Made by a program: the position numbers and the translations under genes
Notes under the pieces: model-generated
Seen by the model: only the letters and a program-made list of their open reading frames with translations
Told to the model about the DNA's origin: nothing
Databases searched by the model: none
Assembly: GCA_965197935.1 (NCBI GenBank)
Contig: CBDAOD010000003.1
Span: forward strand, 1,132,042 to 1,196,041
Reading direction: 5' to 3'
Length of the DNA: 64,000 nt
Origin: Vicinamibacterales bacterium
Lineage (GTDB): Bacteria; Acidobacteriota; Vicinamibacteria; Vicinamibacterales; CAZQMT01
Shown here: piece by piece, positions 5,607-52,494 of the stretch
Layout of the letters: each line of letters begins with the position of its first letter
How positions within the stretch are numbered: the stretch's first letter is position 1

Positions 5607-5656
5607 CCCTCCTGTGTCCCACAAAACACTCTCGGAATGCTCGGTGGACCACTCGA

Positions 5657-30416: not shown

Positions 30417-32907
<2,491 letters not shown>

Positions 32908-34049
32908 TAGTGTAGTGTCCCTGAAATACATTTACATATCAACGACCTGCGTGCAATATAGGCGGGATGAATGATGCCGCCGCCGCTCTGTCCATGGCCG
33001 CGAAGGATCGGCGACTCCTGGAACAGTGGGCCCGTAGTACGTCGGCCCCGCATCGGGTAGTCATCCGCGCGAAGGCGTTGCTGCTGGCGACCGAGGGGGG
33101 TTCCAACAGCCGCATTGCCGCGACCGTGGACGTCAGCCGGCCGACCGTGCTGGCTTGGCGCGACCGGTTTGGAGAGGAGGGCGTTGATTCGGTGTTCGAG
33201 ATGCGTGAGGGGCGCGGGCGCAAACCGACGATCAGTGCGCGCAGGGTCAAAGCCATCGTCCACGCAACGTTGCACCGCACGCCACCGGGGGCGACCCCCT
33301 GGAGTTGTCGCACGATGGCGAAGGCGCAGGGGGTCAGTCGCTCGACCGTGCAGCGGATCTGGGACGCGCATGGCCTCCAGCCCCATCGAGTGGAGACGTT
33401 CAAGCTGTCGACCGATCCCGCGTTCGTGGAGAAGCTGACGGACGTCGTGGGGCTGTACATGAATCCGCCCGAGAAGGCCGTCGTGCTGTGTGTGGACGAG
33501 AAGAGTCACATTCAGGCGCTGGACCGGACGCAGCCCGGGCTGCCGATGAAGAAGGGCCGCTGTGGGACACTCACGCATGACTACAAGCGCCACGGGACAA
33601 CGACCTTGTTCGCCGCGCTGAAGCATGCTGACCGGGCAGGTCATCGGCGAGTGCCACGGCCGGCATCGGCATCAGGAGTTCCTGAAGTTTCTTCGCCAAC
33701 TCCACCGCGCGTTCCCCTCTCGCCTCGACCTCCACCTCATTCTGGACAACTACGGCACGCATAAACATCCGACCGTGCGGGCCTGGCTGGCGGCCCATCC
33801 GCGCTTCACGCTCCACTTCACCCCTACCGGCGCATCGTGGCTCAACCTCGTCGAGAGTTGGTTCAGCCAGCTCACGCAGAAACGCATCCGCCGCGGGGTG
33901 TTTTGCAGTGTCGACGAACTCGTCGCCGCCATCAACGATTACCTCCAGCGCTACAACGACAACCCCCAACCCTTTGTCTGGACCGCGACGGTCGATACGA
34001 TTCTAGAGAAGGTTGGGAAGTGCAAAGTTATTCTTGGGACACACCACTA
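32908..34049 (+). mobile_element. IS630-family element, copy 2 (~1.14 kb)
   Basis: TA-flanked, with IRs TAGTGTAGTGTCCC... / ...GGGACACACCACTA. Nearly identical to copy 1 but in the opposite orientation. Confidence 0.85.
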
Positions 34050-34050
34050 G
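32967..34050 (+). pseudogene. IS630-family transposase, copy 2, 1-nt insertion near 33623
   Basis: Track ORFs 32967-33764 and 33625-34050 overlap. Copy 2 reads CTGAAGCATGCTG where copy 1 reads CTGAACATGCTG (...[17 protein letters not shown]...). Confidence 0.85.
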
Positions 34051-34052
34051 CA

Positions 34053-34727
34053 CTAGTACACCTGCCGCCAGACGGTGGCCCGGATCGCTGGCATCTGCGC
34101 CGCGCCAGCGCCCGGACCGCGGTCGGATTCGGCCGCGGCCAGCCCGGTGCGCGTCACCGTCACCTCTACGGCGCGGCGGCTGCCGCGCCGGCCATTCCCC
34201 TCGACGGCCTCCACTCTCACCAACAGCATGCCGTTCTCGTCGACCGAGGAATCGCCATCGGTCTCCCAAGGATCATCGGCCACCCAGGCTGAGACGTGAA
34301 CGCGGGCGAACGAGTGAATCCGGCCCGGGACGGCACCGGCGGGCAGGAGCGCCGCGACGGGGGCGTGCCCGTAGAGTCGCCAGACCGGCCGGTTGGCGTC
34401 GGTCCCGAAGAGACGGTCGGTCTCCCTCTGCAGTCGAGCCGTCCGATTCGTGAGATCCGGTGTCGGGGTGACCGGGCCCGGCCATCCCGGTCCGGCGCCC
34501 GCCCCGACGAGCCCGCCCAGCACGGGGTTCCAGTCGGAGGCCCGCATCAGCTCGTGAAGGCTGAGCTCCACACCCGCGTCGGCCGCATAGAGCATGCGCT
34601 GGGCGTCCCGGAAGTTGGCCCCGATCATCGTCTCGGTAACGCTGGTCAGGATCATCCCGAGTCCCAGGGTGGTCAGGAGCGACGTCGACAGCACGGCAAT
34701 CAGCAGGGCGGACCCTCGTTCGTTCAT
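34053..34727 (-). CDS. pilX: PilX-like type IV pilus minor component
   Basis: MNERGSALLIAVLSTSLLTTLGLGMILTSVTETMIGANFRDAQRMLYAADAGVE is a typical PilX N-terminal domain. The stop codon lies 3 nt from the IS630 end, so the native C-terminus is uncertain. Confidence 0.65.
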   Translation of the reverse strand: MNERGSALLIAVLSTSLLTTLGLGMILTSVTETMIGANFRDAQRMLYAADAGVELSLHELMRASDWNPVLGGLVGAGAGPGWPGPVTPTPDLTNRTARLQRETDRLFGTDANRPVWRLYGHAPVAALLPAGAVPGRIHSFARVHVSAWVADDPWETDGDSSVDENGMLLVRVEAVEGNGRRGSRRAVEVTVTRTGLAAAESDRGPGAGAAQMPAIRATVWRQVY

Positions 34728-34769: not shown

Positions 34770-35927
34770 TCAGCGACCGAGGTTCAAGTTACGCGGCGTG
34801 ACCTCGAAGGTGAGCGTGTAGTCGGGCACATAGCGGGCCCCGCCGGACGACAGACCGGCTCGGGCGAAGCGGCGCGGATCCCTCCCGCGCAGGGAATCCT
34901 GACTCGCCTGGACGCGGATCGTCACGCGGACCTTCCGGATTCGTAGCAAGTCGCCATCGAACCGGTTGGGTGCCACGCCGCAGACCGGTCCATCCGTCAA
35001 CTGCGCTGCCTCGAGACGCGTAAGCGTGGTGCCGCCGAGATCGGTCAGCCGTGGAGTGGGTGGAACCCCAGGGTCGTAGAGGCAACTGCGTCCGCCTGGG
35101 GCCGGGGGCGGCACCGCGGTGGGCGCCGGGTCCGCATAGTACGCAAAGTCCAGCCCGACCACGTCGTCTGCGACGACAGCCTCGAAGCGGTGGCCGTCGT
35201 AGCGCATGAGACGGCGGCTCTCGGCATCGTGGTAGTACACGCGGTGGACCACCTCGCTGACGTAGATTGGCGGGACAGCCGGGACGATCGGGGCCGGGGC
35301 GACTGGGGGCGCCGCCTGCCCATAGGCTCGAGAGAACGGAGGATGCCCGAGCGTGGCGGGCCCCACCCGATCGACCGTGAAGAGATCGTACCCCAGCCCC
35401 GCGCCGCCAGCGTCGAAGATCAGTGCACGCATACCGGGCAGGAAGCCGCAAGCCGGAAGCGGGCATCCCGGTCCGCCCGCGTGGATGGGCACGTCGCTGC
35501 CAGTCGATCCCATCGCTGCCGACAGCGTCGTTTGGCTACGTGCGTGCGTCGCGTACACGATACTGATCCGATCCCGGGCAAAGGCCAGCTCCCCATCCGG
35601 CGCCCGCAGACCACGGCGCGCCGGCCTGAGTGCAGGGAACGCGCGGCCGAGGGCACCATCGACGCCGGCACGCCCCGGCCCGCCTCCGGCCATCAGCAGG
35701 TCACCCGAGATCAGGGTCGCGGCAGCCCGCATGCGCTGCTGCACGTCGGCCGCGGCCAGCTGCGTGCGGAAACCGCTCTGGCCGCTCCCGAGCATTTCCA
35801 CGAGCGCGCCCACGGCGACCGCCATGATGCCCATCGAGACGGCCAGCTCGACCAGCGTGAACCCCGTGTCGCCGTCGGCGACCCGGCGCCCGCCGGGTCG
35901 CGTGACGGCCCGGGTCGGGTGACTCAT
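34770..35927 (-). CDS. pilW: PilW-like minor pilin (prepilin-type N-terminal methylation domain)
   Basis: ...DGDTG/FTLVELAVSMGIMAVAVGALVEML prepilin cleavage motif. The ATG overlaps the upstream stop (ATGA). Confidence 0.7.
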   Translation of the reverse strand: MSHPTRAVTRPGGRRVADGDTGFTLVELAVSMGIMAVAVGALVEMLGSGQSGFRTQLAAADVQQRMRAAATLISGDLLMAGGGPGRAGVDGALGRAFPALRPARRGLRAPDGELAFARDRISIVYATHARSQTTLSAAMGSTGSDVPIHAGGPGCPLPACGFLPGMRALIFDAGGAGLGYDLFTVDRVGPATLGHPPFSRAYGQAAPPVAPAPIVPAVPPIYVSEVVHRVYYHDAESRRLMRYDGHRFEAVVADDVVGLDFAYYADPAPTAVPPPAPGGRSCLYDPGVPPTPRLTDLGGTTLTRLEAAQLTDGPVCGVAPNRFDGDLLRIRKVRVTIRVQASQDSLRGRDPRRFARAGLSSGGARYVPDYTLTFEVTPRNLNLGR

Positions 35928-36529
35928 CGGGCCCTCCGGGTCCGCAGCGTGACGAGGTGGGTGCCGTCCGCCAGGCTGCGCCCGGGCGCACGCCCGCGCT
36001 GCTCACGATGCAGGGGAACCACGACGACCTGCAACGCGAGCACGTCAGGACTGCCCGCCAGCGGCGTCACGGCCCAGCGGCGGATGAAGGCCGTGACAGG
36101 CGGCGGTGTCGGGCCGTGTCCCACCCAGGCCCCGGAGGCGTCCACGTAATCGACGTAGGGAGGCATGTTGCGCTCGAGCGCCATGGACGGAGCGTGACCG
36201 AGCCCCGGCCCACCGTCGCCAGGAGGGTCGACGCTCAGATCGGTCGTCAGATCGGAGACGCGCCGGCCCGGGGTGCCGCCAGGCCCCAGCTCGTAGGCCC
36301 AGAGCAGCGCGCGAAGCTGTTCGATCTTCGTTCCCGCGATCATCGCGGTGGACGTCTGGCGCCGGGCGCTCGCGGTGGCGGTCACGGCCATCCCCAGGAG
36401 CTGGGCGGCACCGATGGCGCCGATGGTCATCAGGAGCACCGCGACGAGGACCTCGACGAGCGTGATGCCGGCCTGGGCAGAGGCCAGGAATCTGGTGTGC
36501 CTCCGATCGCCGGTTCCGTGTACCCGCAT
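35924..36529 (-). CDS. PilV-like minor pilin
   Basis: ...ASAQAG/ITLVEVLVAVLLMTIGAIGAAQLLGMAV prepilin-type N-terminus. The start is ATG 36529 or 36547. The upstream 50+ aa of the track ORF are rejected. Confidence 0.6.
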   Translation of the reverse strand: MRVHGTGDRRHTRFLASAQAGITLVEVLVAVLLMTIGAIGAAQLLGMAVTATASARRQTSTAMIAGTKIEQLRALLWAYELGPGGTPGRRVSDLTTDLSVDPPGDGGPGLGHAPSMALERNMPPYVDYVDASGAWVGHGPTPPPVTAFIRRWAVTPLAGSPDVLALQVVVVPLHREQRGRAPGRSLADGTHLVTLRTRRAR

Positions 36530-36613
36530 GGCTGCTCCCTGCCTCATGGCCGCGACACGGTGGCCAACACCGCCGCCTCCCCCTCGCAAGTCCGACGTCG
36601 GCGCTCCGGGACT

Positions 36614-36629
36614 TGCAAGCCGCGATCCG
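36614..36629 (-). promoter_or_regulatory. Candidate sigma-54 promoter for the minor-pilin operon
   Basis: Minus strand reads CGGATC-GCGGC-TTGCA. The GG and TTGCA elements have correct spacing, but the -24 hexamer is only 3/6 to TGGCAC. It lies 65-85 nt upstream of the pilV-like start. Confidence 0.3.
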
Positions 36630-36800
36630 ATCCGGTGAGCGCGCGGCGACGACGCCTGCGCGGGGGCGACGGTCGGCCCGACCGCCGGCGGGGGGTGCCC
36701 AGACATTGCACCGGGCGCGCGGGCATCCAGCCGACGGCAGGGCAGAAACTGCGCGGCGAGGGCCCGGAGGGGAGCACCGAGGGGATTGGGGCGGGTGGGA

Positions 36801-37568
36801 TCAGTAGAAGGAGAGATACCAGTCGATCATCGCGTCGCCCGTCAACCCGGCCCAGAGCGCCGCCACCGCAAGAAAGGAGCCGAACGGCAGCGCGTATTTC
36901 ATGCCGCCTTGACCCGCGGCGATCATCAGGACTCCGACGATCGACCCGAGCAACGAGGACAGTACCAACGTCAGGACCGCCAGCTGCCAGCCCAGGAAGG
37001 CTCCGACCATCCCCAGCATCTTGACGTCGCCCATCCCCATGCCGTCCTCCCCGCGCACCCGATAGTAGAGCTCGGCGATCGCCCACAGGCCTCCCCCCCC
37101 TATCAGGATCCCGAGCAGGGACGCCACCCACCCCGGCGGCAGAAACAGGCTGAAGACGAAGCCGCACACGATACCAGGCACGGTGACGAGGTTCGGCAGG
37201 ATGCGGTGCTCCAGGTCGGTCACGAAGAGCACCACCATGGCCGCGACGAAGACCAGCCGTGGCACCAGGAGCGGCTGCCACCCCAGCTGCCAGTAGTACG
37301 CGACGAACAGCAGAGCGGTCGTGATCTCCACGAGCGGGTATCTGATCGAGATCGGTGCGCGGCATGCCCGACACCGACCGCGCAGGAGCGCGTACCCCAG
37401 CAACGGGACGTTGTCGAACCAGCGGAGGGAGCGTCCGCACGCCGGACAGCGCGAGGCGGGGGTCACGACCGACTCCTTCCGGGGGAGCCGGTAGATACAC
37501 ACGTTGAGGAAGGACCCCAACGCGAGGCCCAGGGTGATCACCAGGAGGAGCGGTCCGCTATCTGGCAT
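36801..37568 (-). CDS. pilD: Prepilin peptidase / N-methyltransferase (A24 family)
   Basis: LGSFLNVCIYRLP, the Cys pairs CPACG...CRAC, and multi-TM peptidase A24 body with GMGDVKMLG. Confidence 0.9.
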   Translation of the reverse strand: MPDSGPLLLVITLGLALGSFLNVCIYRLPRKESVVTPASRCPACGRSLRWFDNVPLLGYALLRGRCRACRAPISIRYPLVEITTALLFVAYYWQLGWQPLLVPRLVFVAAMVVLFVTDLEHRILPNLVTVPGIVCGFVFSLFLPPGWVASLLGILIGGGGLWAIAELYYRVRGEDGMGMGDVKMLGMVGAFLGWQLAVLTLVLSSLLGSIVGVLMIAAGQGGMKYALPFGSFLAVAALWAGLTGDAMIDWYLSFY

Positions 37569-37574
37569 GAGGCA

Positions 37575-38492
37575 TCAGGGCACGGGCGCGACGCGAGGGG
37601 GCTCGGTGGGCAGGGGAAAGAGGAGCGAGTCGGCCGACAGCGCCACCGTGCCAGACCGCGGCTCCAAGAGATAGCCCGCGCCGGCGGGATCGACGGGCGG
37701 CGCCGTCACGTATCCCGCCGAGACGAGCTCGTCCCACGTGCCGGGAAACGCACCCGCGTCGAGGGCGAAGTCGTGAACGATCTCCTCGAGCCGATCCAGC
37801 TCGTCCATCGCCACGAGCTGGCTGAGCCTCCGGTCAGCCTCGGACCGTAGCCAGTCGTGATCCGCGGTTTCGCTGATCTGCTGCCACAACACACGCGACG
37901 CCTGACGATCGCCGCCGTGCGCCACGGTCGAGGCGGCGAGCGACTCGAGCCACCACGGCGAGTCTGGTATCTCGTGCGCCTTTCGGAACCACGCGGCCGC
38001 CGCACGATAGTCGTGAAGCCACCAGTAGTGCACGAAGCCGATGTCCATGGCGTACTGCCACTTCGCCGGCGTGGCCTCGAGGCCCTTTTCCAGTAGTGCG
38101 ATGGCCAGATCGGGACGACCCGGGCCGTTGGGATACTCCTCGGTCAGGAAGATCGCACCAAACCGGAACGCGATCGTGAAGTGGGGATCCAGCGATGTCG
38201 TGATGTCGAGCAGGGGGCCGAGCTGGTCATAGCGCTTGTCGGCCAACTCCGACCGCTTGACGTCCCCGTAGTGCTGGAGCGCGCGGATCCAGTACACATC
38301 GGATGCGACCTCGTCGAACGCCAGCGTCAATCGCCGCAGCGTGGCGCCGCTCGGGACGTAGAGCAGATCGGGAGACGCCGGGTCCGGCACGGCGCGCCGG
38401 TCACGGACGACCTGTAGCAGCACGCTCACCCCGAGCAACGCTGCCACGGTCGCAGCAACCCACCGTCCACTGGCCCCGACACGTCTGCCCAT
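37575..38492 (-). CDS. Membrane-anchored TPR-like repeat protein, unknown function
   Basis: N-terminal anchor WVAATVAALLGVSVLLQVV, then helical repeats rich in W/Y/A/L (...YWIRALQHYG..., ...AIALLEKGLEATP..., ...DYRAAAAWFRKAHEIP...). It sits between the ABC-2 permease and pilD. Confidence 0.5.
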   Translation of the reverse strand: MGRRVGASGRWVAATVAALLGVSVLLQVVRDRRAVPDPASPDLLYVPSGATLRRLTLAFDEVASDVYWIRALQHYGDVKRSELADKRYDQLGPLLDITTSLDPHFTIAFRFGAIFLTEEYPNGPGRPDLAIALLEKGLEATPAKWQYAMDIGFVHYWWLHDYRAAAAWFRKAHEIPDSPWWLESLAASTVAHGGDRQASRVLWQQISETADHDWLRSEADRRLSQLVAMDELDRLEEIVHDFALDAGAFPGTWDELVSAGYVTAPPVDPAGAGYLLEPRSGTVALSADSLLFPLPTEPPRVAPVP

Positions 38493-38509
38493 CGTCCACC
38501 GTCACGCGG

Positions 38510-39316
38510 TTACTTGAAATCCCTCCGGCCGAAGATCCACGCCGCCGCGACGAGCAGGGCCGACACGTAGACCAGTCCGTAGCCGATCGTCAATAGCATC
38601 TGATCCGTGTCGACCGGTAACGCGTGGACGACCCGGCCCTTCACATCGAACGGCGCGAGGTTGGGAAGCACGTAGTAGAGCGCGCGTCCGAGATACGCGG
38701 CTGGTGTGAAATCGACGACGTTCTCGAAGTGCCGCAGGTCCGCATTAAGATGCCCGACGACATACAGACCGGCCGTCAGAGCCGCAGAGAGGATGGGGCT
38801 CGAGAACGTCGAAAAGAGGACCGCAACCGCGGTCACGATCATCAGCTCGACCATGATGAGCAGCACGGCCTTCAGCATCGCCGGGTCCAGGGCCGGCGCC
38901 TCCCATCCTCTCTTGAACTCCTCGGCTTCGGTCACGTCCATGTAGCCGAGTACGGCGTACAGCGCGACCGTCATCACCGACACGTTGACCAGCAAGGTCA
39001 GCACCAGGCCGGCATACTTGCCCACGATGAGCTGGGAGCGCCGCATCGGCTTGGCGAGCACGGAGCAGATGCTGCGGCGCTCCACCTCCTTCGACACCAG
39101 CCCGATCCCGATGAAGACCGCGATGAACAGCCCAAACAACGAGATGGACGAGAGCCCCAGGTCCTTGATGATCTTGACTTCCTGGCCGGCCGTCAGCTGG
39201 CCGAGGACAATCGAAGCGGCGATCAGGAGCACCGCGAAGAAGACCAGGTTGTACAAGACCTTATCGCGGACCGATTCTCGGAAGACGTTGACGGCGATGT
39301 AGGCGATCACCCGCAC
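38510..39316 (-). CDS. ABC-2 type transporter permease (position of Myxococcus PilI)
   Basis: Six-TM-type sequence VIAYIAVNVFRESVRDKVLYNLVFFAVLL... The proposed start GTG 39316 is uncertain, and the track ORF extends artefactually to 39805. Confidence 0.7.
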   Translation of the reverse strand: MRVIAYIAVNVFRESVRDKVLYNLVFFAVLLIAASIVLGQLTAGQEVKIIKDLGLSSISLFGLFIAVFIGIGLVSKEVERRSICSVLAKPMRRSQLIVGKYAGLVLTLLVNVSVMTVALYAVLGYMDVTEAEEFKRGWEAPALDPAMLKAVLLIMVELMIVTAVAVLFSTFSSPILSAALTAGLYVVGHLNADLRHFENVVDFTPAAYLGRALYYVLPNLAPFDVKGRVVHALPVDTDQMLLTIGYGLVYVSALLVAAAWIFGRRDFK

Positions 39317-39360
39317 GCGCAGATCTCCACGCCAATCGCCCGTGATGCACTCACGGGCCG

Positions 39361-40374
39361 CTACGGTGACTGGCCGACCACGTTGCGGCTGCGCTCGCGA
39401 GTGGCGCCACGACCCGGTGTGGCGGCCTCGGCCGGGTCCTGACCCCCGGCGGCCCTGACGGTCCGCTCGAAGATGTCCTCGAGGGTATGCCGTACCGGGT
39501 TGAGCGAGACGAGCCGCGCGCCACCCGTCGAGAGATGCGCCAGCACCCGATCCGGGGTACACCCGGCCGACAGCTCGATCGCGTAGCGGCGACCCGTGAT
39601 CGGCGTGGTGCGCACGATGGCCGTCCCGAGGCCGTCGAGCGTGCTCCGATCGAGGTCGTCCACCACGAGCTCCCAACCCCGAACGTCGAACGCCAGGTCG
39701 GTCAACCTGCCCTGAGCACGCAGACGCCCCCCCACGAGGATGCCGACACGGCTGCAGACCGCCTCGGCGTCGGCCAGGATGTGAGAGCAGAAGAACACCG
39801 CGCAACCACGGTCACGCAGTCGCAGGATCAGCGACCGAACATCCTTCCGTCCGAGCGGGTCGAGGCCGGACATCGGCTCGTCGAGGAACAGCACGTCGGG
39901 GTCATTGATCAGCGCCTGGGCGATGCCGACACGCTGCAGCATCCCCTTGGAGAACCGGCGCAGCTGCATCCGTCGCTCGGCGCCGATCCCAAGCTCGTCC
40001 AGGAGCCCGGCCACCCGGCGCGTGCGATCGGCCGAGCGGTATCCGAATAGCCCGGCGAAATAGTGCAGCAGCTCCTCGGCCGTCAGGTGGTCGTAGAAGT
40101 ATGGTTGCTCCGGCAGGTACCCGATGCGGCGCTTCGACTCGACATCACCGAGCGGCCGGCCCAGGATCTCCCCATGCCCCGACGTCGGGAACACGAGCTG
40201 CAGCAGCAGCTTCAACGTGGTCGTCTTCCCGGCGCCGTTCGGGCCAAGGAATCCGAAGACCTCACCACCGTCGATCTCGAGCGTCAAACCATCCAGGACC
40301 CGATGCGACCGTGCGCGCCAGAAGCCGACCGGGTAGTCCTTGGTCAGCGTCTCGGTCCTGATCGCGTGGGTCAC
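39361..40374 (-). CDS. ABC transporter ATP-binding protein (position of Myxococcus PilH)
   Basis: GTG 40374 overlaps the upstream stop. Walker A GPNGAGKTT, signature FSKGMLQR, Walker B LFLDEPMSGLD. The track ORF N-terminal ~157 aa are rejected. Confidence 0.85.
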   Translation of the reverse strand: MTHAIRTETLTKDYPVGFWRARSHRVLDGLTLEIDGGEVFGFLGPNGAGKTTTLKLLLQLVFPTSGHGEILGRPLGDVESKRRIGYLPEQPYFYDHLTAEELLHYFAGLFGYRSADRTRRVAGLLDELGIGAERRMQLRRFSKGMLQRVGIAQALINDPDVLFLDEPMSGLDPLGRKDVRSLILRLRDRGCAVFFCSHILADAEAVCSRVGILVGGRLRAQGRLTDLAFDVRGWELVVDDLDRSTLDGLGTAIVRTTPITGRRYAIELSAGCTPDRVLAHLSTGGARLVSLNPVRHTLEDIFERTVRAAGGQDPAEAATPGRGATRERSRNVVGQSP

Positions 40375-41630
40375 CTGCCCACCCGCTTCAACTCCAGGGC
40401 GAGCGCCAAGTCGAAATACGGGCGTTCGAGCCCTCCCTGCACCTTGACCCCATTGACGAAGAAGGTCGGCGTCGCCTGCACTCCGAGGCGCCGGCCGAGC
40501 GCGATGTCGGCCTTGACGAGCTCGAGGGTGGCGTCGTAGTCGACGTCGAAGGTCTCGACACCGGCCACGTCGCGAACCGCCTCCCGGATGGCTGCGGGAG
40601 AGAGCGACGCCTGATTCTCGAAGAGCCACTCTTCCATGAGCTCGGCCTTGCCGCCCTCGCGTGCGAGCCGCACGGCCACGGCCGCCTCGCACGCCGCGGT
40701 GTGCAACCCGGTCGCCACGTTCTCGTTGCACTCCGGATCGAGGGGATAGTCCTTGGTGACGAAGACGACGTCGCCCGGATACTGCTCCTGATACCGCGCC
40801 ACGATATCCCGGTAGTTGAAGAACGTCTGGCGGCACGGTGGGCACTGGTAGTCGTTGAACTTCACGATGACGAGTGCGGCCCCCTCACCATCGACGGGAA
40901 CCTCGATCCGGGGCTGGGCAGCGTACCACCCTTCGAATTCGGTCTGCTGTCCGTCGGTCAGCGCCGGCGCAAGTGCCGCAGCCGGGGCCACCGGATCGGG
41001 TTCGGTTGTCGATGCGTCCCGGGCGAAGAACCCCATCGCCAGCGTCGCGCCGCCCAAGAACATCACCGACACCAGCGCCACGACCGGACGTCGGCCGATC
41101 TCCTGGAAGTCCCGCGCGACACGCGTCGGCAAGGACGCCATCGAAAACGGCGTGGAGGCGCCGGACACGACGAAGATGCCGGCAACCGCCACGTACACCA
41201 GGCCGCACAGAATACACACGGCACCGAGCACGAACCACGACACGTACGCCAGATACACGGTGGGTACCAGGGCGATGCCCGAGAGCGCGAACAGATACAG
41301 CGGCACACTCTCCCGATACGTGGCCGGCCCCAGGCGTTCCGCCAGGAGCAGGAGCAGGAGCAGGCCGAACCACACGGTCCCCACCAGCGCCACGGGGACG
41401 CCGCCGATCGACCCGAATCGGCTCAGATAGACGGTCGTGCAGCTCACGGTGGCGTTCACGTCGCAGAAGCTCAAGTACTCTGTCTCGGTCAGGAGCCGAT
41501 GGTGGACGTAGGTGGAAACCGCCGAGGCCACCAACCCCAGTAGCGTGAACGCGAGAAGGAGATTGCGGACTCGCCCCGTCATGAGACGAACAGTGGGTGG
41601 CATGGTCGCCTTGCGTGGGTGCTTGCTCAT
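40371..41630 (-). CDS. VKOR (vitamin K epoxide reductase) domain fused to a DsbA-like thioredoxin-fold domain
   Basis: The N-terminal 5-TM part has loop cysteines FCDVNATVSC and an active-site CILC. The C-terminal part has CPPC and the cis-Pro loop ATPTFFVNG. Confidence 0.8.
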   Translation of the reverse strand: MSKHPRKATMPPTVRLMTGRVRNLLLAFTLLGLVASAVSTYVHHRLLTETEYLSFCDVNATVSCTTVYLSRFGSIGGVPVALVGTVWFGLLLLLLLAERLGPATYRESVPLYLFALSGIALVPTVYLAYVSWFVLGAVCILCGLVYVAVAGIFVVSGASTPFSMASLPTRVARDFQEIGRRPVVALVSVMFLGGATLAMGFFARDASTTEPDPVAPAAALAPALTDGQQTEFEGWYAAQPRIEVPVDGEGAALVIVKFNDYQCPPCRQTFFNYRDIVARYQEQYPGDVVFVTKDYPLDPECNENVATGLHTAACEAAVAVRLAREGGKAELMEEWLFENQASLSPAAIREAVRDVAGVETFDVDYDATLELVKADIALGRRLGVQATPTFFVNGVKVQGGLERPYFDLALALELKRVGR

Positions 41631-41930: not shown

Positions 41931-41971
41931 AAAGAAAAACGAGGAGTGTCCGCTCACGCGAACACTCCTCG
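41931..41971 (-). terminator. Rho-independent terminator after the distal pilin gene
   Basis: Minus strand reads CGAGGAGTGT-(12 nt)-ACACTCCTCG followed by TTTTTCTTT, 25 nt after the pilin stop. Confidence 0.8.
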
Positions 41972-41995: not shown

Positions 41996-42523
41996 CTACT
42001 GGATTGGGTTTGAACCCGCGGGCGCACCGTTTTGCGTGACCACGACCTGCGCAGTGCTCTGGTAGATCGTGCCACCCTGATTCGTGCCGAAGAATCGCGC
42101 GCCGGCTCCGGCCGTGGGATCGCCGCCCACGAAGTACGTTCCGACCACGGTGCCGGCAGCCGCGCCGTTACAGGACGCGGGAGCACCCGCAGCCGCCGCG
42201 CCAGCGGTCAGGGCAACCGTGTAGCCACTCTTGACCGAGGGATCGGTCGCCAGGTCCGGGCCGATGAAGCCGTCACCGCCGGCCACGGTCGGTGGCGTTG
42301 CCAGCCGCACGAGCGACGGGGCGTAGAAGCCACTGCCGCAGCTGGACGCGAAGGTCGACTGGGCGCTGTTGATAGCCCTGAGCGACCCGATGGCCGAAGC
42401 CTCGTTGCCCGACATTCGGGCCCGCAGTAGACCCGGTACCGCGATGGCCGCGATGATCCCGATGATCGCCACGACGATCAGAAGCTCGATGAGCGTGAAC
42501 CCTTTGTTGTCCCGTGCCTTCAT
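41996..42523 (-). CDS. pilA: Type IV major pilin, paralogue 1
   Basis: MKARDNKG/FTLIELLIVVAIIGIIAAIAVPGLL prepilin motif. Two Cys (SSCGSG, PASCNG). The track ORF start at 42649 is an upstream extension. Confidence 0.85.
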   Translation of the reverse strand: MKARDNKGFTLIELLIVVAIIGIIAAIAVPGLLRARMSGNEASAIGSLRAINSAQSTFASSCGSGFYAPSLVRLATPPTVAGGDGFIGPDLATDPSVKSGYTVALTAGAAAAGAPASCNGAAAGTVVGTYFVGGDPTAGAGARFFGTNQGGTIYQSTAQVVVTQNGAPAGSNPIQ

Positions 42524-42627: not shown

Positions 42628-42643
42628 AGCAAGCGGGATGCCA
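42628..42643 (-). promoter_or_regulatory. Sigma-54 (-24/-12) promoter of pilin paralogue 1
   Basis: Minus strand reads TGGCAT-CCCGC-TTGCT, against consensus TGGCAC-N5-TTGCW. It lies about 105 nt upstream of ATG 42523 and downstream of a PilS/PilR-type NtrC-family pair. Confidence 0.75.
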
Positions 42644-42848: not shown

Positions 42849-43376
42849 CTACTGGATCGGCGTGGCGCCCGCAGGCATACCGTTCTGGGTCACGACGACC
42901 TGCGCCGTGCTCTGGAAGATCGTGCCACCTTGGTTCGTGCCAAAGAACCGCGCCCCCGCCCCCGGTGTCGGGTCGGCCCCGACGAAGTAGGTCGTCGTGA
43001 CGGCACCCGCGGCCGCTCCGTTGCACGACGCAGGGGCTCCGGCAGCAGCTGCACCTGGAGTCAGCGTCACGCTGTAGCCGCTTTTGGTCGAGGGGTCCAC
43101 GGCCAAATCGGGTCCGATGAAACCGTCGCCACCGGCGACGGTCGGGGGTGCCGCCAGCCGCGCCAGCGACGGGGCGTAGAAGCCGCTCCCGCAGCTGGCG
43201 GCGAAGGTGGACTGAGCACTGTTCACGGCCCGCAGCGATCCGATTGCCGACGCCTCATTGCCCGACATCCGGGCTCGCAGCAGACCCGGCACGGCGACGG
43301 CCGCAATGATGCCGATGATTGCCACGACGATGAGCAGCTCGATTAGCGTGAAACCGCGCGAATTCTGCAATCTCAT
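42849..43376 (-). CDS. pilA: Type IV major pilin, paralogue 2
   Basis: MRLQNSRG/FTLIELLIVVAIIGIIAAVAVPGLL. Colinear with paralogue 1 along the whole length, roughly 85% identical by eye. Confidence 0.85.
   Translation of the reverse strand: MRLQNSRGFTLIELLIVVAIIGIIAAVAVPGLLRARMSGNEASAIGSLRAVNSAQSTFAASCGSGFYAPSLARLAAPPTVAGGDGFIGPDLAVDPSTKSGYSVTLTPGAAAAGAPASCNGAAAGAVTTTYFVGADPTPGAGARFFGTNQGGTIFQSTAQVVVTQNGMPAGATPIQ

Positions 43377-43481: not shown

Positions 43482-43487
<6 letters not shown>
43461..43487. promoter_or_regulatory. Perfect 10-bp inverted repeat overlapping the pilR stop codon (regulator site or U-tract-less hairpin)
   Basis: GACTGATACC-TAGTGTC-GGTATCAGTC. Noticeably AT-richer than its context. 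Confidence 0.35.
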
Positions 43488-44909
<1,422 letters not shown>

Positions 44910-44982
44910 TCGTGACGTCGTCGGTCCGTGCTGGCTTGACGCCTCGGTCCCATCGTTTCGCTCTCGCGGAGACTCCGGCCGC

Positions 44983-46605
44983 TCACGCCGACCTGGCCAT
45001 GGCGCTGGCGGGCAGCCGCACGCTTACGGTCGTGCCGGCGCCCGGCGACGAGCGGACCTCGAGCTCGCCTCCGTAGTCGCTCGCGATGCGGTCGACAATC
45101 GCCAGCCCCAGACCGCTGCCCTTCGGAAAGGCCCCGCGGAACGGCTGCCGCATCTCGTCCAGCCGGTCCGCCGGAATCCCGACCCCCTCGTCGCCGACCA
45201 TCAGGACCACGGCGTCCTGCTCGTCCCGGGCGGACATCACGAGCCGGCCACCCTCCGGCATCGCCCGCAACCCGTTGCTGGCCAGATTCCAGATGACCTG
45301 GCGGATCTGGCCCTCGTCGGCCTCGTACCACACGCCAGTCTCCGGCCCCTGGACCTCGATGCTGTGGCGGGGCCCCACGGCCGAGCTGTTCCTGAGCAGG
45401 AGCGCGGTGTCGCTCATCAGTGCCCGCACGTCCAGCCGGGTGGTCGCGAAGCGCTGCGGTCGGGCGTAGTCGAGCAGGCTACGGATGCTGTCGTTGAGCC
45501 GGCCCGACTCCCGGAGCACGATGTCCATGAGCTGCACCTGCTCGTCCGTCAGGGTCAGCTCGCGCCGAAGAATCTGGATCGACCCGGACATCGACGCCAG
45601 CGGGTTGCGGATCTCGTGCGCGATGCCGGCGGCCATTTCGCCCACGGCAGCGAGCCGCTGCTGGATACGTGTTGCTCGCTCGAGCTTCTTCGGATCGGTC
45701 ACGTCCCGAAACGTGTACACGAATCCGGCCTGGCCGAGCGACGTCACCAGGGGCGTCGCGCTCAGCCCGACCTCGATCCGGTCGCCCCCGTCCTTGGCGA
45801 AGATGTAGTCGACCCGCGGCCGGCCGCCACCCCGCCGAGTGTCGTCCAGCGACCGAGTGAACTCGACGGGGAGCTGCAGCACGTCCTCGACGCCGCGACC
45901 GGACACATCCGTCGCCCGCATCCCCGTGATGGCCTCGGCGCCGGGGTTGAAGGTGAGTATCCGACCCTCACGGTCGGTGGTGACCAGTCCGCTCGTGAGA
46001 CTCTCGATGACATGCTGGTTCAGCGCCTGCAGATCGGCGATCTCGGTCGATGCCCGCCGGAGCCCCTCGGCCAGGTAGCCACTGAGAATCGCGACCGACA
46101 CGAACCCGGAGACGTTGAGCCCCACGGTGAACAGGGCCACGCGGGCCGGGGGAAGCAGCACGGCGGGGCGCGCCAGGGCTCCGGGCCAACCCGCATACTG
46201 CTCCGCCACCACCCACACGTAGGCCACGGCGCTCAGCCCGGCCACGAGCAGGCCGGCGCGTCGCGACCGAACGATGCTGGCCGCGATCACGGGCAGGAAG
46301 TACAACGACGTGAAATAGCTCCCGACGCCGCCCGTAACCCCGATGATGGCCGTGATGATGCAGGCGTCTATTCCGAGCTGCACCTCCACCAGCCATCTCC
46401 GACGCTCGCAGAGCCCCACCGTCAGACGGTAGACGAGGGTCAGGGCGTAGGTCAGGCCAATCAACCCGATGAAGGATCCCTCGGGGGCTTCGCCCGGTAT
46501 CCCGAACGGCACCAACGTCGCGGGCCCGAGCACCGCCGTCACCGTGAACGCCTGGATCCCGATCAACCAGAGCAGCTTGCGTCTGAGCTCGGATCCCGTG
46601 GTCAT
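44983..46605 (-). CDS. pilS: Membrane sensor histidine kinase, PilS-like
   Basis: ATG 46605 (MTTGSELRRKLLWLIG), six predicted TM helices, a PAS-like segment, H-box AAGIAHEIRNPL and HATPase_c (GSGLGLAIV). Confidence 0.75.
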   Translation of the reverse strand: MTTGSELRRKLLWLIGIQAFTVTAVLGPATLVPFGIPGEAPEGSFIGLIGLTYALTLVYRLTVGLCERRRWLVEVQLGIDACIITAIIGVTGGVGSYFTSLYFLPVIAASIVRSRRAGLLVAGLSAVAYVWVVAEQYAGWPGALARPAVLLPPARVALFTVGLNVSGFVSVAILSGYLAEGLRRASTEIADLQALNQHVIESLTSGLVTTDREGRILTFNPGAEAITGMRATDVSGRGVEDVLQLPVEFTRSLDDTRRGGGRPRVDYIFAKDGGDRIEVGLSATPLVTSLGQAGFVYTFRDVTDPKKLERATRIQQRLAAVGEMAAGIAHEIRNPLASMSGSIQILRRELTLTDEQVQLMDIVLRESGRLNDSIRSLLDYARPQRFATTRLDVRALMSDTALLLRNSSAVGPRHSIEVQGPETGVWYEADEGQIRQVIWNLASNGLRAMPEGGRLVMSARDEQDAVVLMVGDEGVGIPADRLDEMRQPFRGAFPKGSGLGLAIVDRIASDYGGELEVRSSPGAGTTVSVRLPASAMARSA

Positions 46606-46621: not shown

Positions 46622-47824
46622 TCACGCGAGCTGGTTGATGAGCTCGAAGATCGGTAGGTACATCGATATGACGATTCCGCCGACGACAACGCCCAGAACG
46701 AAGATCATGATCGGCTCCAGGAGGGTGAGCAGGCCGGCCACCGCCGCATCGACCTCCTCCTCGTAGAACTCGGCGATCTTGGACAGCATCGCGTCCAGCG
46801 CACCCGTGGTCTCACCGACGTTGATCATCTGGCTGACCATCGGCGGGAAGACCGCGGTACTCTTGAGCGGACCAGAGAGCGACTCGCCACGCTCGAGACT
46901 GGTGCGCGTGAACATCACGGCATCCCGGATGATCGCGTTGCCTGCCGTCTTCGCCGTGATCTCCAGCCCGTCCAAGATCGGCACACCCGAGGCGATGAGC
47001 GTCGAGAGGGTGCGGCAGAATCTGGCGACCGCCACCTTCCGCAAGATGTTGCCCAGCACGGGCGCCTTGAGCATTAGTCGATCCACGACTCGCTCTCCGC
47101 GCTCAGTGCCGTAGCACTTCTTAAACAGGAACGTCAGAGCGATCCCGCCCAGGAGCATGAACGGCATCCAGGCGATCAATCCGTTGCTGGCCGCGATGAC
47201 GATTCGGGTCGGCAGCGGCAGCTCCGCGCCCAGCCCTTCGAACAGCGTCGCGAAGGTCGGAATGACCTTCCACAGGATCGCCGCGACGACGACGGCGGCG
47301 ATCACGATGACCGCGATCGGATAGATCATCGCGGACTTGACCTGGCCCTTGAGCTTGACGGACTTCTCGATGTACTCGGCCAGCCGCTTGAGGATGGTGT
47401 CGAGGATGCCCCCGGCCTCGCCGGCGGCCACCATGTTCGAGTAGAGCTGGTCGAACGCTGCGGGCGACTTCCGCATCGCTTCGGCGAGAGACGCGCCGCC
47501 CTCGACATCCTCGCGCGTCTTCAGGATCATCTTCGCGAATCTGGCGTCCTCCTCTTGCTTGCCCAGGATGTCGAGGCACTGCACGAGTGGGAGCCCTGCG
47601 TCGATCATCACCGAGAACTGTCGGGTGAACACGGCCAGGTTCTTGCTCGGGACGGCCCGCCCCTTCTTCGGTGGTTTCGCCTTCGCCTTCACCGGGTCGA
47701 TCCGGGTGACCAGCACCTGCTCTCGACGAAGCCCGGAGACGACAACCTGCGAGGTGTCGCCACTGCGCTCGCCGCTCACGAGCTCTCCGGTTCGCGTTCG
47801 GCCGGAGTACGCAAAGGTCGGCAT
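46622..47824 (-). CDS. pilC: Type IV pilus platform protein PilC
   Basis: Two GspF-type repeats and the canonical C-terminus ...VGGIVISMYLPIFELINQLA. Confidence 0.9.
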   Translation of the reverse strand: MPTFAYSGRTRTGELVSGERSGDTSQVVVSGLRREQVLVTRIDPVKAKAKPPKKGRAVPSKNLAVFTRQFSVMIDAGLPLVQCLDILGKQEEDARFAKMILKTREDVEGGASLAEAMRKSPAAFDQLYSNMVAAGEAGGILDTILKRLAEYIEKSVKLKGQVKSAMIYPIAVIVIAAVVVAAILWKVIPTFATLFEGLGAELPLPTRIVIAASNGLIAWMPFMLLGGIALTFLFKKCYGTERGERVVDRLMLKAPVLGNILRKVAVARFCRTLSTLIASGVPILDGLEITAKTAGNAIIRDAVMFTRTSLERGESLSGPLKSTAVFPPMVSQMINVGETTGALDAMLSKIAEFYEEEVDAAVAGLLTLLEPIMIFVLGVVVGGIVISMYLPIFELINQLA

Positions 47825-47898: not shown

Positions 47899-49050
47899 TC
47901 ACGGCCGCCGTGGTCGAGACATTGGCTCGGCGGCCGACGGCCGGGAGCCGCCGAACCGGGCTCCCTCTCGCCGGACGACGACGTCCTCACCGCGCTTGAT
48001 CATCTCCTGCAGCTCTTCCTTGAGCGAGGAGGCCGCCATGGCGGTCCCGATCGAGATTCGCTTGCGCTGGAAGAGCGTGGCGAGCGCCTGATTCATGGTC
48101 TGCATGCCGAGTCGGTCCTGCCCGGACTGCATGGCCGAGTAGATCTGGTGGATCTTGTCCTCGCGGATGAGATTCCGGATCGCGCTGGTCGGCACCATGA
48201 TCTCGAGCGCCGGCACCCTGCCCTGACCGTTCGAGGTCGGAAGCAGCGACTGGCACACAATGCCTTCGAGTACGAACGAGAGCTGGGTGCGAACCTGCGG
48301 CTGCTGGTGAGCCGGGAAGACATCGATCATGCGGTTGATCGACTGCGCGGCCGAGTTGGTGTGCAGCGTGGCGAACGTGAGATGCCCCGTCTCGGCGATC
48401 CGCAGGGCCGCCTCGATCGTCTCGAGGTCTCTCAGCTCTCCGATTAACACGATATCCGGGTCTTCACGCAGCGCCGACCGGAGGGCCGGCGCGAATCCGT
48501 GTGTGTCGCCACCCACCTCTCGTTGGTTGACCAGGCACCCCTTGTGCTCGTGCAGATACTCGATGGGGTCCTCGACCGTCAGGATGTGCTGGCGTCGCGA
48601 AAGGTTGATCTTGTGGAGCAGCGCCGCCAGCGTGGTCGACTTGCCGCTACCGGTGGGCCCGGTCACCAGAACGAGGCCGCGCGGTCGCTCGGCGAGCTCG
48701 GCAATGACCGGAGGGAGGCCCAGTTCTTGAAATCCATGGATCTTGTCGGGGATCAGTCGGTAGACCGCCCCGACGGAGCCACGCTGGCTGAACACGTTGC
48801 AGCGGAAGCGACCGATGCCGCGGACGCCGAAGGCGAGGTCCAGCTCTAGGGTCTCCTCGAAACGCTTCTTCTGTCCGTCGGTGAGCACGCTGTAGGCCAG
48901 CCGCTTGGTGTCGGCCGGCGTCAGCTTCGGCGCATCGAGCGTCCGGAGCTCGCCATGAACGCGAACCTGGGGCGGGGTGCCGGTCGCGAGGTGCAGATCG
49001 GATCCACCGAGCTCGCTGGTCGTCTTGAGTAGTTCGGGCAGTGTCGGCAT
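47899..49050 (-). CDS. pilT: Type IV pilus retraction ATPase PilT
   Basis: ATG 49050 (MPTLPELLKTTSELGGSDLHL). Walker A GPTGSGKST, and AHQQPQVRTQLS plus the GMQTMNQAL region typical of PilT. The upstream 108 aa of the track ORF are rejected. Confidence 0.9.
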   Translation of the reverse strand: MPTLPELLKTTSELGGSDLHLATGTPPQVRVHGELRTLDAPKLTPADTKRLAYSVLTDGQKKRFEETLELDLAFGVRGIGRFRCNVFSQRGSVGAVYRLIPDKIHGFQELGLPPVIAELAERPRGLVLVTGPTGSGKSTTLAALLHKINLSRRQHILTVEDPIEYLHEHKGCLVNQREVGGDTHGFAPALRSALREDPDIVLIGELRDLETIEAALRIAETGHLTFATLHTNSAAQSINRMIDVFPAHQQPQVRTQLSFVLEGIVCQSLLPTSNGQGRVPALEIMVPTSAIRNLIREDKIHQIYSAMQSGQDRLGMQTMNQALATLFQRKRISIGTAMAASSLKEELQEMIKRGEDVVVRREGARFGGSRPSAAEPMSRPRRP

Positions 49051-49525
49051 GGCTACATCACCGTTTCGCGCACGACCTCCTCGACGGTCGTGACGCCCGC
49101 TGCGATCTTTCTCAGTCCGCTCCCGCGCAGCGAGATCATCCCTTCCTCGAGGGCCTTTCGACGCAGCTCCAACGAGGACGCGCCAACAAGGATCAGCTCC
49201 CGCAGGCTGTCCGTCACCTCCATCACTTCGTACAGCCCGACGCGCCCCTTGTATCCCGTGCGATCGCACTTCTCGCACCCGGCGCCCTCGCTGGGGATCA
49301 CCCGATCTGCGTCGTCGGGCGAGAACCCGATCTTCTGCAGGGCCTCCCCGGGCAGAGGGCTGGGCTGGACGCATTCGCCGCAGACGCGGCGAACCAGGCG
49401 CTGGGCGCAGATCAGATTGACCGAGCTGGCCACGAGAAAGGGCTCGATCCCCATGTTCATCAATCGGCTGATCGTGCTTGGAGCGTCATTCGTGTGAAGG
49501 GTCGAGGAGTCAAGCCCATTCTTAG

Positions 49526-49683
49526 AGTCTCCCTCTGGGATGGGTGAAACCCCTCGCCTTTAGGCGAAGCCTTCAGGAGGCCGCAGGGCCGGACCTCTTC
49601 GGGCTCTGGGACGTGCGCCGTGATAGTCGGCTTCAGCCGACGCGGCGCACTGATTCCCTCGCCTTCAGGCGAGGGAGACTCAA
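49526..49683 (+). mobile_element. Non-autonomous IS200/IS605 derivative (PATE/MITE-like), 158 bp, no ORF
   Basis: It splits the IS256 IR CATTCTTAG|TTGAAACTC. 49535-49581 matches the tnpA-proximal end of the IS200 element (reverse complement of 10345-10392). 49655-49676 matches the other end (reverse complement of 9820-9840), including the CCCTCGCC..GGCGAGGG hairpin. Confidence 0.75.
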
Positions 49684-49710
49684 TTGAAACTCTCTACGGC
49701 TCCGGATTCG

Positions 49711-50991: not shown

Positions 50992-52494
50992 CTCGGCTCC
51001 TTTCTCTCGTGGGTTGATGGCCGTTTTGCTTAACGTCATCAAACCACAGGGTGTGGGAGCCGTTTCAATTTCCAACTAAGTTTCGCTCACCCTCGGGTCG
51101 AGAGCACGAGGTGGCCCGTCAAGGCCGCCTTGACGGCGATCTCGGCCGTTTCGAAGTCCCGAATCTCCCCCACCAGAATGATGTTGGGATCCTGCCGGAG
51201 GAACGACCGCAGGGCCGCCGCAAAGTTCAGGCCAATCGCTTCCCGTACCTGCACCTGATTGACACCCGGCAAGTTGAACTCGACCGGATCCTCGGCCGTC
51301 ATGATGTTGGTCTGCGGTGTATTGATGCGAGCCATGGACGAGTAGAGCGTGTTGGTCTTCCCGCTGCCGGTCGGACCCGTGACGAGCACCATCCCCCACG
51401 GACGCTCGATGGCCGCCTCGTAGACGGCGAGCGATTCCCGCTCGAAGCCCAGGCCGGTCATGTCCAGCATGAGCTTGTCCCGGTCCAGCAGGCGCAACAC
51501 GATCTTCTCGCCGAACAGCGTCGGCAGGCACGACACACGGAAGTCGATCTCCTTCGAACGCCCCTTGTCGTTGAACCGGATCTTGATGCGCCCATCCTGG
51601 GGCAAGCGCTTCTCCGCGATGTCCAGCTTCGCCATGATCTTGAGCCGCGATGCGATCGCATCGCGCAAGCTCAGGGACGGCTCCATCACCTGATAGAGGA
51701 TCCCGTCCACCCGAAACCGCACGCGCAGCTCGCGTTCGTATGGCTCGATGTGGATGTCGCTGGCGCCCTTCTGGATCGCGGACATCAGAATCAGGTGCAC
51801 CAGCCGAACGACCGGGGCCTCGTTCCCCTGCTTCTCCAGCGTGGCGACGTCGAGCTCCGCCAAATCCTCGAGCTCTTCCACCTCGTCCGCCGGCGGCATG
51901 TCCTCGAGCGCCCTGGTGGCGATCTCGAGCGTGCTGGCGTGTTCCTTTTGCTGGGCGACGCCGTAGTAGGTCTCGATGGCAGCGAGAATCGCGCTCTCCG
52001 GCGATACGACCGGCTCGACGTTGTACCCCGTCATGAACTTGATGTCGTCCATGGCGAACACGTTCGTCGGGTCCGTGATCGCGATCGTCAGCGTCCAGCC
52101 GACACGGCTGAGCGGCACGAACCGATACCGCATCGCGGTCTCGGCCGAGACGACCTTGATGACCTCCGCGTCGATCTCGAACAGCGACAGATTGATCGAC
52201 GGGACACCGTAGTGCCGGCTCAGCACGGCCGCGATCTCGTCGTCGGTGACGCATCCGAGACTCACGAGGCTGGCGTCGAGCGTGCCCCCCTTGGATCGCT
52301 GATGCTCGCTCGCGTCCTCGAGCTGCGCCGCGGTGACCCGACCCTCCTTGAGCAGGAGATCGCCGATCTCTACGACCATCGTCCGGGGGAAGACCTCAGC
52401 AGTCCGTGATGAAAGTCCGGCGTCGCACCGGTGCGGCGCGCCGCAGGCAAGGCGCGAGGAGGAAGAATGAGGGTGCGCGGAGGAAGGATGTCCG

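Follow-up and report, generated by a model that had tools for sequence, protein, structure and literature searches.

A VKOR-DsbA fusion gene between the pilin genes and pilD in the type IV pilus cluster of Vicinamibacterales

Introduction

Type IV pilins usually need a disulfide bond, and the oxidase that forms it is normally a housekeeping enzyme encoded elsewhere. Here, we describe a type IV pilus cluster of a soil Acidobacteria (Vicinamibacterales) in which a gene for a VKOR (vitamin K epoxide reductase) domain fused to a DsbA-like domain lies between the tandem pilin genes and pilD. The cluster is located on a stretch of 64,000 nt (contig CBDAOD010000003.1 of assembly GCA_965197935.1, positions 1,132,042 to 1,196,041), hereafter called the window, and all coordinates are counted from its first nucleotide. 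The region is G+C-rich (about 66-70%) and the minus strand (-) carries every relevant gene of the pilus cluster. An initial annotation of this DNA had proposed a Myxococcus-like pil locus with a dedicated disulfide-forming module for pilin maturation and a Tgl/PilF-like assembly factor. We examine these proposals by domain searches, structure models and comparison of gene order in relatives.

Results

Gene content between the pilin genes and pilD

In the direction of transcription, the cluster reads pilB (split by an insertion sequence, IS), pilT, pilC, pilS, pilR, pilA1, pilA2, the fusion gene, an ATP-binding cassette (ABC) ATPase gene, a permease gene, a gene for a 305-aa protein, pilD and minor pilin genes. 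All sequence-level features that the initial annotation had named are borne out, including the upstream order pilB-pilT-pilC-pilS-pilR-pilA-pilA, and the insert between pilA and pilD, which it had put at three to four genes, consists of exactly four. These encode the VKOR-DsbA fusion (419 aa, 40371-41630; Pfam VKOR, Thioredoxin_4 and DSBA), a DrrA/GldA-like ABC ATPase (337 aa, 39361-40374; ABC_tran, 2.2e-27), an ABC-2 permease (268 aa, 38510-39316; ABC2_membrane_2, 1.6e-9) and the 305-aa protein, which is akin to tetratricopeptide repeat (TPR) proteins (37575-38492; no Pfam match at threshold and no Cys). They are preceded by the major pilin genes pilA1 (42849-43376) and pilA2 (41996-42523), each encoding a 175-aa precursor with an N_methyl match (86% identity between the two), and followed by pilD (36801-37568), which encodes the prepilin peptidase/N-methyltransferase (A24_N_bact, 1.8e-36; Peptidase_A24, 4.7e-20).

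The stop codon of the fusion gene overlaps the start codon of the ATPase gene in the tetranucleotide GTGA (GTG 40374-40372, TGA 40373-40371). This annotated overlap is genuine, as a gene call made independently on a nearly identical public contig yields the same 4-nt overlap and the same 337-aa length of the ATPase. A spacer of 365 nt separates pilA2 from the fusion gene. The exported proteins of the locus contain 0, 2 or 4 Cys and, the pilins aside, 0 or 4, in agreement with a periplasm that is oxidising. No Rfam match was obtained anywhere in the window. By its gene content, the cluster would encode a type IVa pilus of the Myxococcus/Geobacter style, with the genes from the fusion to pilD forming a putative, tightly packed operon after the tandem pilins.

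The VKOR-DsbA fusion protein

Both halves of the fusion score above the Pfam cut-offs. VKOR (PF07884) matches residues 24-156 (1.3e-23; 84 bits against a cut-off of 27.5), and residues 248-400 in the C-terminal part are matched by Thioredoxin_4 (PF13462, 6.3e-13; 49.7 bits against 23.2) and DSBA (PF01323, 3.6e-8; 33.9 bits against 25.6). The annotated motifs are likewise confirmed: the VKOR part contains the loop pair C56/C64 and a CXXC in the last core helix (C139-ILC-142, the CILC motif), the DsbA-like part contains CPPC (C263/C266), and the cis-Pro loop is T387-P388 within TPTFF. The DsbA-like part has an extra conserved pair as well (C301/C314). The eight Cys and T387-P388 are invariant in an alignment of 25 homologs, and the eight Cys and the cis-Pro also in a set of 80 sequences (the window and 79 loci; L075 was not included). 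Hydropathy gives a basic N-terminus and five hydrophobic segments, the fifth transmembrane (TM) segment spanning residues 183-201; we infer that the N-terminus is cytoplasmic, that a fifth TM helix follows a four-TM VKOR core and that the DsbA-like domain is periplasmic.

The PDB sequence matches of the N-terminal part are the VKOR structures 6wv9, 6wv3 and 3kp9, the last being the Synechococcus VKOR-thioredoxin protein. For the C-terminal part, the best matches are of the ScsC type (6mhh, 4xvw and 6nen; E about 1e-9), and BdbD is matched as well. More than 2,400 proteins in a 90%-clustered database have this VKOR plus DsbA-like make-up, and bacterial VKORs in which a thioredoxin-like domain at the C-terminus accompanies a fifth TM helix are already known (PMC4555120). 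The fusion is thus predicted to belong to a known kind of enzyme, in which one polypeptide replaces DsbB and DsbA. It shares with the Synechococcus VKOR (3KP9/4NV2) the loop Cys pair, the CXXC in the last core helix, the extra TM helix, the periplasmic thioredoxin-fold domain with CXXC and the use of a single polypeptide in place of DsbB and DsbA. It differs from the Synechococcus protein in that its domain is DsbA-like (Thioredoxin_4/DSBA), nearest to the ScsC/BdbD type and equipped with a second conserved Cys pair, and in that its gene sits within a type IV pilus operon. No match was found when the plasmid collection was searched with the fusion protein, and in NCBIfam neither the fusion nor the permease nor the TPR-like protein has a specific family.

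Synteny in relatives and a nested deletion series

Relatives were scanned at one genome per species, which gave 345 relatives, and the best 80 loci (given below by their L numbers) were examined with the proteins of the window. The best 120 proteins and the best 80 of the 345 loci are all of Vicinamibacterales type, so one order was sampled; nearly all of the 80 are labelled Vicinamibacterales, Vicinamibacteria or unclassified Acidobacteriota, and five carry other labels. The labels Bifidobacterium breve, Woeseiaceae, Acidimicrobiia and Acidobacteriaceae (L049, L013, L021, L066 and L078) are probably binning or labelling errors.

The fusion gene is syntenic with pil genes in these relatives. 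In 62 of the 68 loci whose upstream sequence is long enough, a pilin gene on the same strand ends within 1.5 kb upstream of it. On the downstream side, 66 loci are informative, and 62 of these have pilD: behind the ATPase, the permease and the 305-aa protein in 58, and directly after the fusion in four. The other four have none of the ABC ATPase, permease, TPR-like protein and pilD genes. The median gaps, which are approximate, amount to about 13 nt between the fusion and the ATPase, 1.5 nt between the permease and the 305-aa gene and 1 nt between the latter and pilD; the ATPase C-terminus is too variable for a reliable estimate of the ATPase-permease gap. This tight spacing suggests an operon whose genes would be co-transcribed. 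The collinearity extends to unrelated genes on both sides, with rpoA/rplQ, EF-G, the pyruvoyl arginine decarboxylase gene (ArgDC), pil genes, the fusion, pil genes, aroB, proS and tatC in the same order across loci. Because all 80 loci belong to one order and the unrelated flanks are collinear too, inherited gene order is enough to explain the synteny.

Parts of the cluster are missing in some loci, which together form a nested deletion series. In L003 and L005, pilBTCSR is absent, whereas L066 has kept pilBTC-pilA-fusion-pilD, L070 pilA-fusion, and L001, L034 and L052 only pilA-fusion-pilD; the fusions of these last three are mutually divergent (43-46% identity). In L011, L013 and L021, the fusion gene stands alone between ArgDC and aroB; pil genes are absent over 10 kb, and the encoded fusion is still intact, with the eight Cys and the cis-Pro. 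Of the genes of the block, the fusion alone is kept throughout this series.

The cysteine pair of the neighbouring pilins

Both pilins of the window have a prepilin leader and the GFTLIE motif and match N_methyl (5e-10 and 2e-9). Their N-terminal helix matches the Geobacter, Myxococcus xanthus and PAK pilins, and the PDB sequence matches are limited to this helix. Each precursor contains exactly two Cys (SCGSG and PASCNG), as had been annotated. They correspond to positions 54 and 110 of the 167 residues of the mature pilin, and alignment to M. xanthus and other pilins places Cys54 at the end of helix alpha-1. A disulfide is present in most T4a pilins, classically as a C-terminal loop, the D-region (PMC11046646). 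That classical loop is ruled out here, as the last 57 residues of the window pilins contain no Cys.

We collected 103 pilin-like open reading frames within 4 kb upstream of the fusion gene from 67 loci, and 101 of them encode exactly two Cys. When aligned together with the two window pilins, 87 pilins have Cys at 54 and 110, 13 at 70 and 110, and two at 54 and 70. Outside these three patterns are one pilin with three Cys, a truncated one with a single Cys and one that is seemingly frameshifted. No intact pilin in the alignment has a single Cys, the loss of one position being offset by another of the three. Pilins with a moved pair occur upstream of the fusion in L022, L026, L036, L053, L071, L072, L074 and L079, and the switches probably reflect only about three events. 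Because the count stays at two with compensated changes of position, the pattern indicates that the pair behaves like a structural disulfide that can be set among three neighbouring positions (54, 70 and 110), which probably lie close together in the pilin fold.

The pilins are also conserved in overall sequence. The best non-self pilins are 88-91% identical to those of the window, against 65% for the best non-self VKOR-DsbA, and L012 and L003 show an identity to the window of 82-88% for the pilin and 52% for the fusion. High pilin conservation relative to the neighbouring genes is seen in loci L012, L003, L001, L051 and L005. Such conservation is unusual for a surface pilin and suggests either strong constraint or exchange of pilin alleles.

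The ABC transporter and its TPR-like neighbour

The AlphaFold2 model of the 305-aa protein (predicted local distance difference test score, pLDDT, 83.6) shows an N-terminal TM helix (residues 8-32) and a disordered linker, then about nine helices that form hairpins, with a small beta hairpin at the C-terminus. Foldseek returned weak matches only, to generic TPR proteins (E about 1e-3, TM-score about 0.33), and TPR_14 scores below threshold in 31 of 36 homologs, so that 'TPR-like' seems a reasonable label for this modelled fold. In a profile search at 50% clustering, the family numbers 4,770 representatives at E <=1e-3 and, under the stricter limit of E <=1e-30, 545; it has no Pfam model, and its distant members are named almost solely 'hypothetical protein' in cluster look-ups. 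At the C-terminus of the protein (gene 37575-37700), a conserved motif P-x-D-P-x-G-x-P-Y-x-L-D-P...G forms the beta hairpin of the model; presumably it resembles the DPWG-x-x-Y motif of GspG-type pseudopilins.

The protein is membrane-anchored and has no lipobox Cys, as the initial annotation had noted. Its suggestion of a Tgl/PilF-like assembly factor does not hold: we rejected the reading as a pilotin of the Tgl/PilF/PilW type on the grounds that the lipobox Cys is missing and that the gene is coupled to the ABC genes, the ATPase, the permease and the 305-aa protein being all present in 58 of 66 loci and all absent in the other eight. It has in common with the Tgl, PilF and PilW pilotins that it would be a periplasmic protein of helical, seemingly TPR-like repeats encoded in a pilus cluster, and it departs from them in its N-terminal TM anchor, which would lie in the inner membrane, and in its constant company of ABC genes. 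Given its joint presence with the ABC genes and the overlap of its start with the permease stop in other lineages, the TPR-like protein is best read as the partner of the ABC transporter and not as an outer-membrane pilotin.

These other lineages have the same genes next to pilA and no VKOR/DsbA gene. A forest soil locus (L084) reads pilT-C-S-R-pilA-ATPase-permease-homolog, and a locus of Ca. Eisenbacteria (L085) pilB-T-C-S-R-pilA-ATPase-permease-homolog, followed by a second histidine kinase and regulator and by minor pilins. Two pilins precede ATPase-permease-homolog in L086, which was not placed taxonomically, and a metagenome locus (L087) reads pilB-T-C-S-R-pilA-ATPase-permease-homolog-kinase-pilM-N-O-(P)-Q. 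L084 and L087 are likewise unplaced, and these three loci come from metagenomes or MAGs. The start of the homolog overlaps the permease stop by 1-4 nt in L084, L085 and L087, and a gap of 21 nt is found in L086. L082, L083 and L088, which are noisy long-read assemblies, are of the Vicinamibacterales type with the fusion present. With pilA-ABC-permease-TPR found in L084-L087 in this form, the unit that crosses phyla (at least two) appears to be pilA-ATPase-permease-TPR-like protein, and the fusion appears to be a lineage-specific insertion. As the pilins of the fusion-less loci contain 6, 0, 4, 4 and 1 Cys, pilin Cys content and an adjacent oxidase gene are, judged from these loci, not tied together.

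Regulatory elements around pilA2

Just 3' of pilA2, on the minus strand, lies an intrinsic-terminator-like hairpin with a 14-bp stem followed by TTTTTCTTT (41940-41971). It would attenuate read-through into the fusion-ABC-TPR-pilD genes and so would permit a large excess of pilin over the downstream enzymes. On the same strand, a sigma-54-type -24/-12 element (TGGCATCCCGCTTGCT, 42628-42643) is found upstream of pilA2, about 105 nt from the start codon, which fits PilR with its Sigma54_activat domain. The element is the sole match in the window, where about two are expected by chance, and the support that it lends is positional and not one of rarity. The window scan found no such element upstream of pilA1; as only pilA2 is preceded by one, expression may differ between the tandem pilin genes.

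Other genes of the cluster, disruption of pilB and mobile elements

The remaining genes upstream of the pilins are pilT (47899-49050), pilC (46622-47824), pilS (44983-46605) and pilR (about 43482-44930), and pilD is followed by three minor-pilin or PilX-like genes (35924-36706, 34770-35927 and 34053-34727), a 385-aa product among them containing four Cys. Directly upstream of pilB, a gene on the minus strand (52495-53580) encodes a 361-aa predicted outer-membrane protein with a TraF_2 match (PF13729), and it keeps this pilB-adjacent position in many related loci.

A feature that the initial annotation had not mentioned is an IS256-family element of 1,588 bp (49507-51094), with its transposase gene at 49711-51075 on the minus strand (Transposase_mut, 7.9e-35). 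It splits pilB, leaving the N-terminal part at 51095-52379 and the C-terminal part at 49053-49506. The insertion site lies after the codons for ...GHLVLST, and the 8-bp target duplication CTCGACCC is present at 51102-51095 and 49506-49499. The identical insertion occurs in the public contig L081, an independent assembly of nearly the same sequence. Unless another pilB exists, the strain probably cannot extend a pilus; the identity of the cluster's genes is left unaffected by the disruption.

The window is rich in insertion sequences, notably at 4107-10328 and 32284-34050. It contains a second, frameshifted copy of the IS256-family transposase gene (6026-7382), IS630-type copies at 7427-8452 and, with a frameshift, at 32967-34050, an IS200-type Y1 transposase gene (9891-10328) and an IS21/Mu-like transposase gene (4107-5624). 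An IS630-type copy lies 3' of the minor pilins, where the aroB-proS-tatC backbone of the relatives is not seen in the window.

Discussion

The Myxococcus-like character of the locus, as initially annotated, stands in part. In M. xanthus DK1622, the order is pilA, pilG (no Pfam domain), pilH (ABC_tran), pilI (ABC2_membrane_2) and pilD (PMC6060248, supplement), and the window likewise has a pilB-T-C-S-R-A cluster with an ABC_tran ATPase, an ABC2_membrane_2 permease and an accessory protein between pilA and pilD. The likeness to PilH and PilI is one of position and Pfam families. Where M. xanthus reads pilA-pilG-pilH-pilI-pilD, the window reads pilA-[VKOR-DsbA]-ATPase-permease-TPR-pilD, so the slot of PilG holds the fusion; having no Pfam domain, PilG is neither a VKOR nor a DsbA. 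VKOR, thioredoxin and DsbA are absent from the domain tables of the myxobacterial and other deltaproteobacterial pil clusters (PMC6060248, supplement), and in Anaeromyxobacter a TPR_16 protein is listed beside PilI, which we take as a lead only. M. xanthus PilG/PilH/PilI is TCDB 3.A.1.144.5 (PMC3924187), and PilGHI has been described as an ABC exporter complex that is required for pilus assembly (PMC3546991; PMC3724824). In the literature, we found no report of VKOR in type IV pilus loci or on the pili of Vicinamibacter specifically.

Oxidation of type IV pilins by a DsbA-like enzyme has a precedent in Bacillus subtilis, where BdbDC acts on the competence pilin ComGC (PMC10246001). As would be the case for the fusion, a DsbA-like oxidase and a membrane quinone reductase put a disulfide into a type IV pilin there. 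BdbD/BdbC and the Gram-negative DsbA are separate proteins with DsbB-type partners, unlike the one-polypeptide fusion. To our knowledge, neither BdbD nor the Gram-negative DsbA oxidases that serve pilins are encoded in a pilus operon.

We consider it probable, at about 0.6, that the fusion serves this lineage as its general oxidase for envelope disulfides, its gene being inserted in the pilus operon of Vicinamibacterales, with the pilins as likely abundant clients. A general role is preferred to a dedicated one because the fusion alone is always kept in the deletion series and because pilA-ABC-permease-TPR modules exist without it. Several observations weigh against this interpretation. The three loci in which the fusion stands alone (L011, L013 and L021) have fusions that are 96-97% identical to each other and hence represent a single loss event, and pilins may be encoded elsewhere in genomes of this type, since loci alone were examined. 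For the same reason, further DsbA/DsbB/VKOR systems besides the fusion may exist in these organisms. In L024, L054 and L069, the fusion-ABC-TPR-pilD genes are kept together in an upstream context without the EF-G/ArgDC backbone, which is in line with a functional link between the fusion and the pilus operon. The AlphaFold2 model of the pilin, built on 31 close homologs, reached a pLDDT of 45 and is unusable for the Cys-Cys distance. Finally, with pilB disrupted, the pilus may not be made at all in this genome.

We doubt that the fusion is an oxidase dedicated to the pilins, forming their disulfide in a maturation line with PilD while other enzymes carry out the general oxidation. Its adjacency to pilA in 62 of 68 loci and its packing in one operon with pilD would suit such a role, but this synteny comes from one order in which unrelated flanking genes are equally collinear. 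The minimal trio pilA-fusion-pilD recurs in the divergent L001, L034 and L052 and the module stays together under a changed upstream context, yet the fusion is just as intact where no pil gene lies within 10 kb. The invariant Cys pair of the neighbouring pilins would also be expected of a dedicated substrate, whereas homologous pilus modules of other lineages lack the fusion even when their pilins contain four to six Cys. What remains of the annotated disulfide module is that the pilin pair behaves like a disulfide (101 of 103); 'dedicated' is not supported, being weakened by a fusion that is never deleted and stays intact without neighbouring pil genes, and by a pilus module that exists without the fusion.

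It is improbable, on the other side, that the neighbourhood reflects descent only, with a housekeeping oxidase whose adjacency to pilA is a frozen accident without co-regulation or pilin preference. Shared descent would account for the collinearity of EF-G, ArgDC, the pil genes, the fusion, aroB, proS and tatC across the order, and a missing co-regulation would agree with the strong terminator-like hairpin and the 365-nt spacer between pilA2 and the fusion; the fusion is, moreover, fast-evolving (median 48% identity to the window) and shows no sign of tracking the pilin (up to 88%). Nevertheless, the gene lies inside the pil genes with overlapping or near-zero spacing to ABC-TPR-pilD, and the unit of fusion, ABC, TPR and pilD genes is kept together in altered contexts. 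As a general oxidase, the fusion would have the two-Cys pilins as substrates anyway. A reducing or isomerising role, in which the DsbA-like domain acts like ScsC or DsbC in copper stress or the repair of wrong disulfides, is highly improbable and was rejected on account of the fusion to VKOR: the best C-terminal PDB matches are indeed ScsC-type (6mhh, 4xvw and 6nen) and the cis-Pro loop is Thr-Pro, but BdbD, an oxidase, is among the matches too, the VKOR core with its intact loop Cys and CXXC provides an electron path towards quinone, which is oxidising, and no ScsB/DsbD-like reductant gene was seen in the operon.

For the general oxidase that we favour, the following course of events can be proposed. 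The periplasmic DsbA-like domain would oxidise Cys pairs of exported proteins with its CPPC, from which electrons would pass to the VKOR loop pair C56/C64, then to the membrane CXXC (C139/C142) and finally to quinone. The gene is probably co-transcribed with the pilus operon, and the pilins, with their Cys pair at 54-110, 70-110 or 54-70, would be probable abundant clients. Until they are assembled, pilins are anchored in the membrane, so that an oxidase tethered there would encounter them in one plane; PilD would then cleave and methylate them. The ATPase, permease and TPR-like protein would form a separate, older pilin-linked module, comparable to PilH/PilI plus an accessory factor, and by analogy with what is claimed for PilGHI this module may act on the inner-membrane pilin pool.

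A bolder proposal is speculative and, on balance, unlikely. It holds that the pilus maturation line of Vicinamibacterales has recruited its own membrane-tethered oxidase, in that the fusion, co-expressed with PilD and the PilH/PilI-like ABC-TPR module, would form an unusual disulfide between alpha-1 and the sheet (54-110, movable to 70-110 or 54-70) before assembly. Separately, it would make the pilA-ABC-permease-TPR module, present in at least two phyla and including the family without a Pfam model, a new way into the function of PilGHI.

Conclusions

The components described here are of known kinds. New are the position of a VKOR-DsbA gene, which across the order lies after pilA and before a PilH/PilI-like module, and the conservation, in at least two phyla, of a TPR-like protein as third partner of the pilA-linked ABC module. 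In this order-wide arrangement, the pilin genes and pilD have between them a one-polypeptide equivalent of DsbA and DsbB. Should the fusion be no more than a general oxidase, this is ordinary biology in an under-studied phylum. Should its link to the pilus be functional, the cluster would be a natural example of a surface-filament operon with its own oxidative-folding enzyme, and the fusion would be a compact, portable oxidase module that is testable in E. coli. The role of PilGHI in M. xanthus has been unclear since 1998, and the conserved third partner offers a concrete target.

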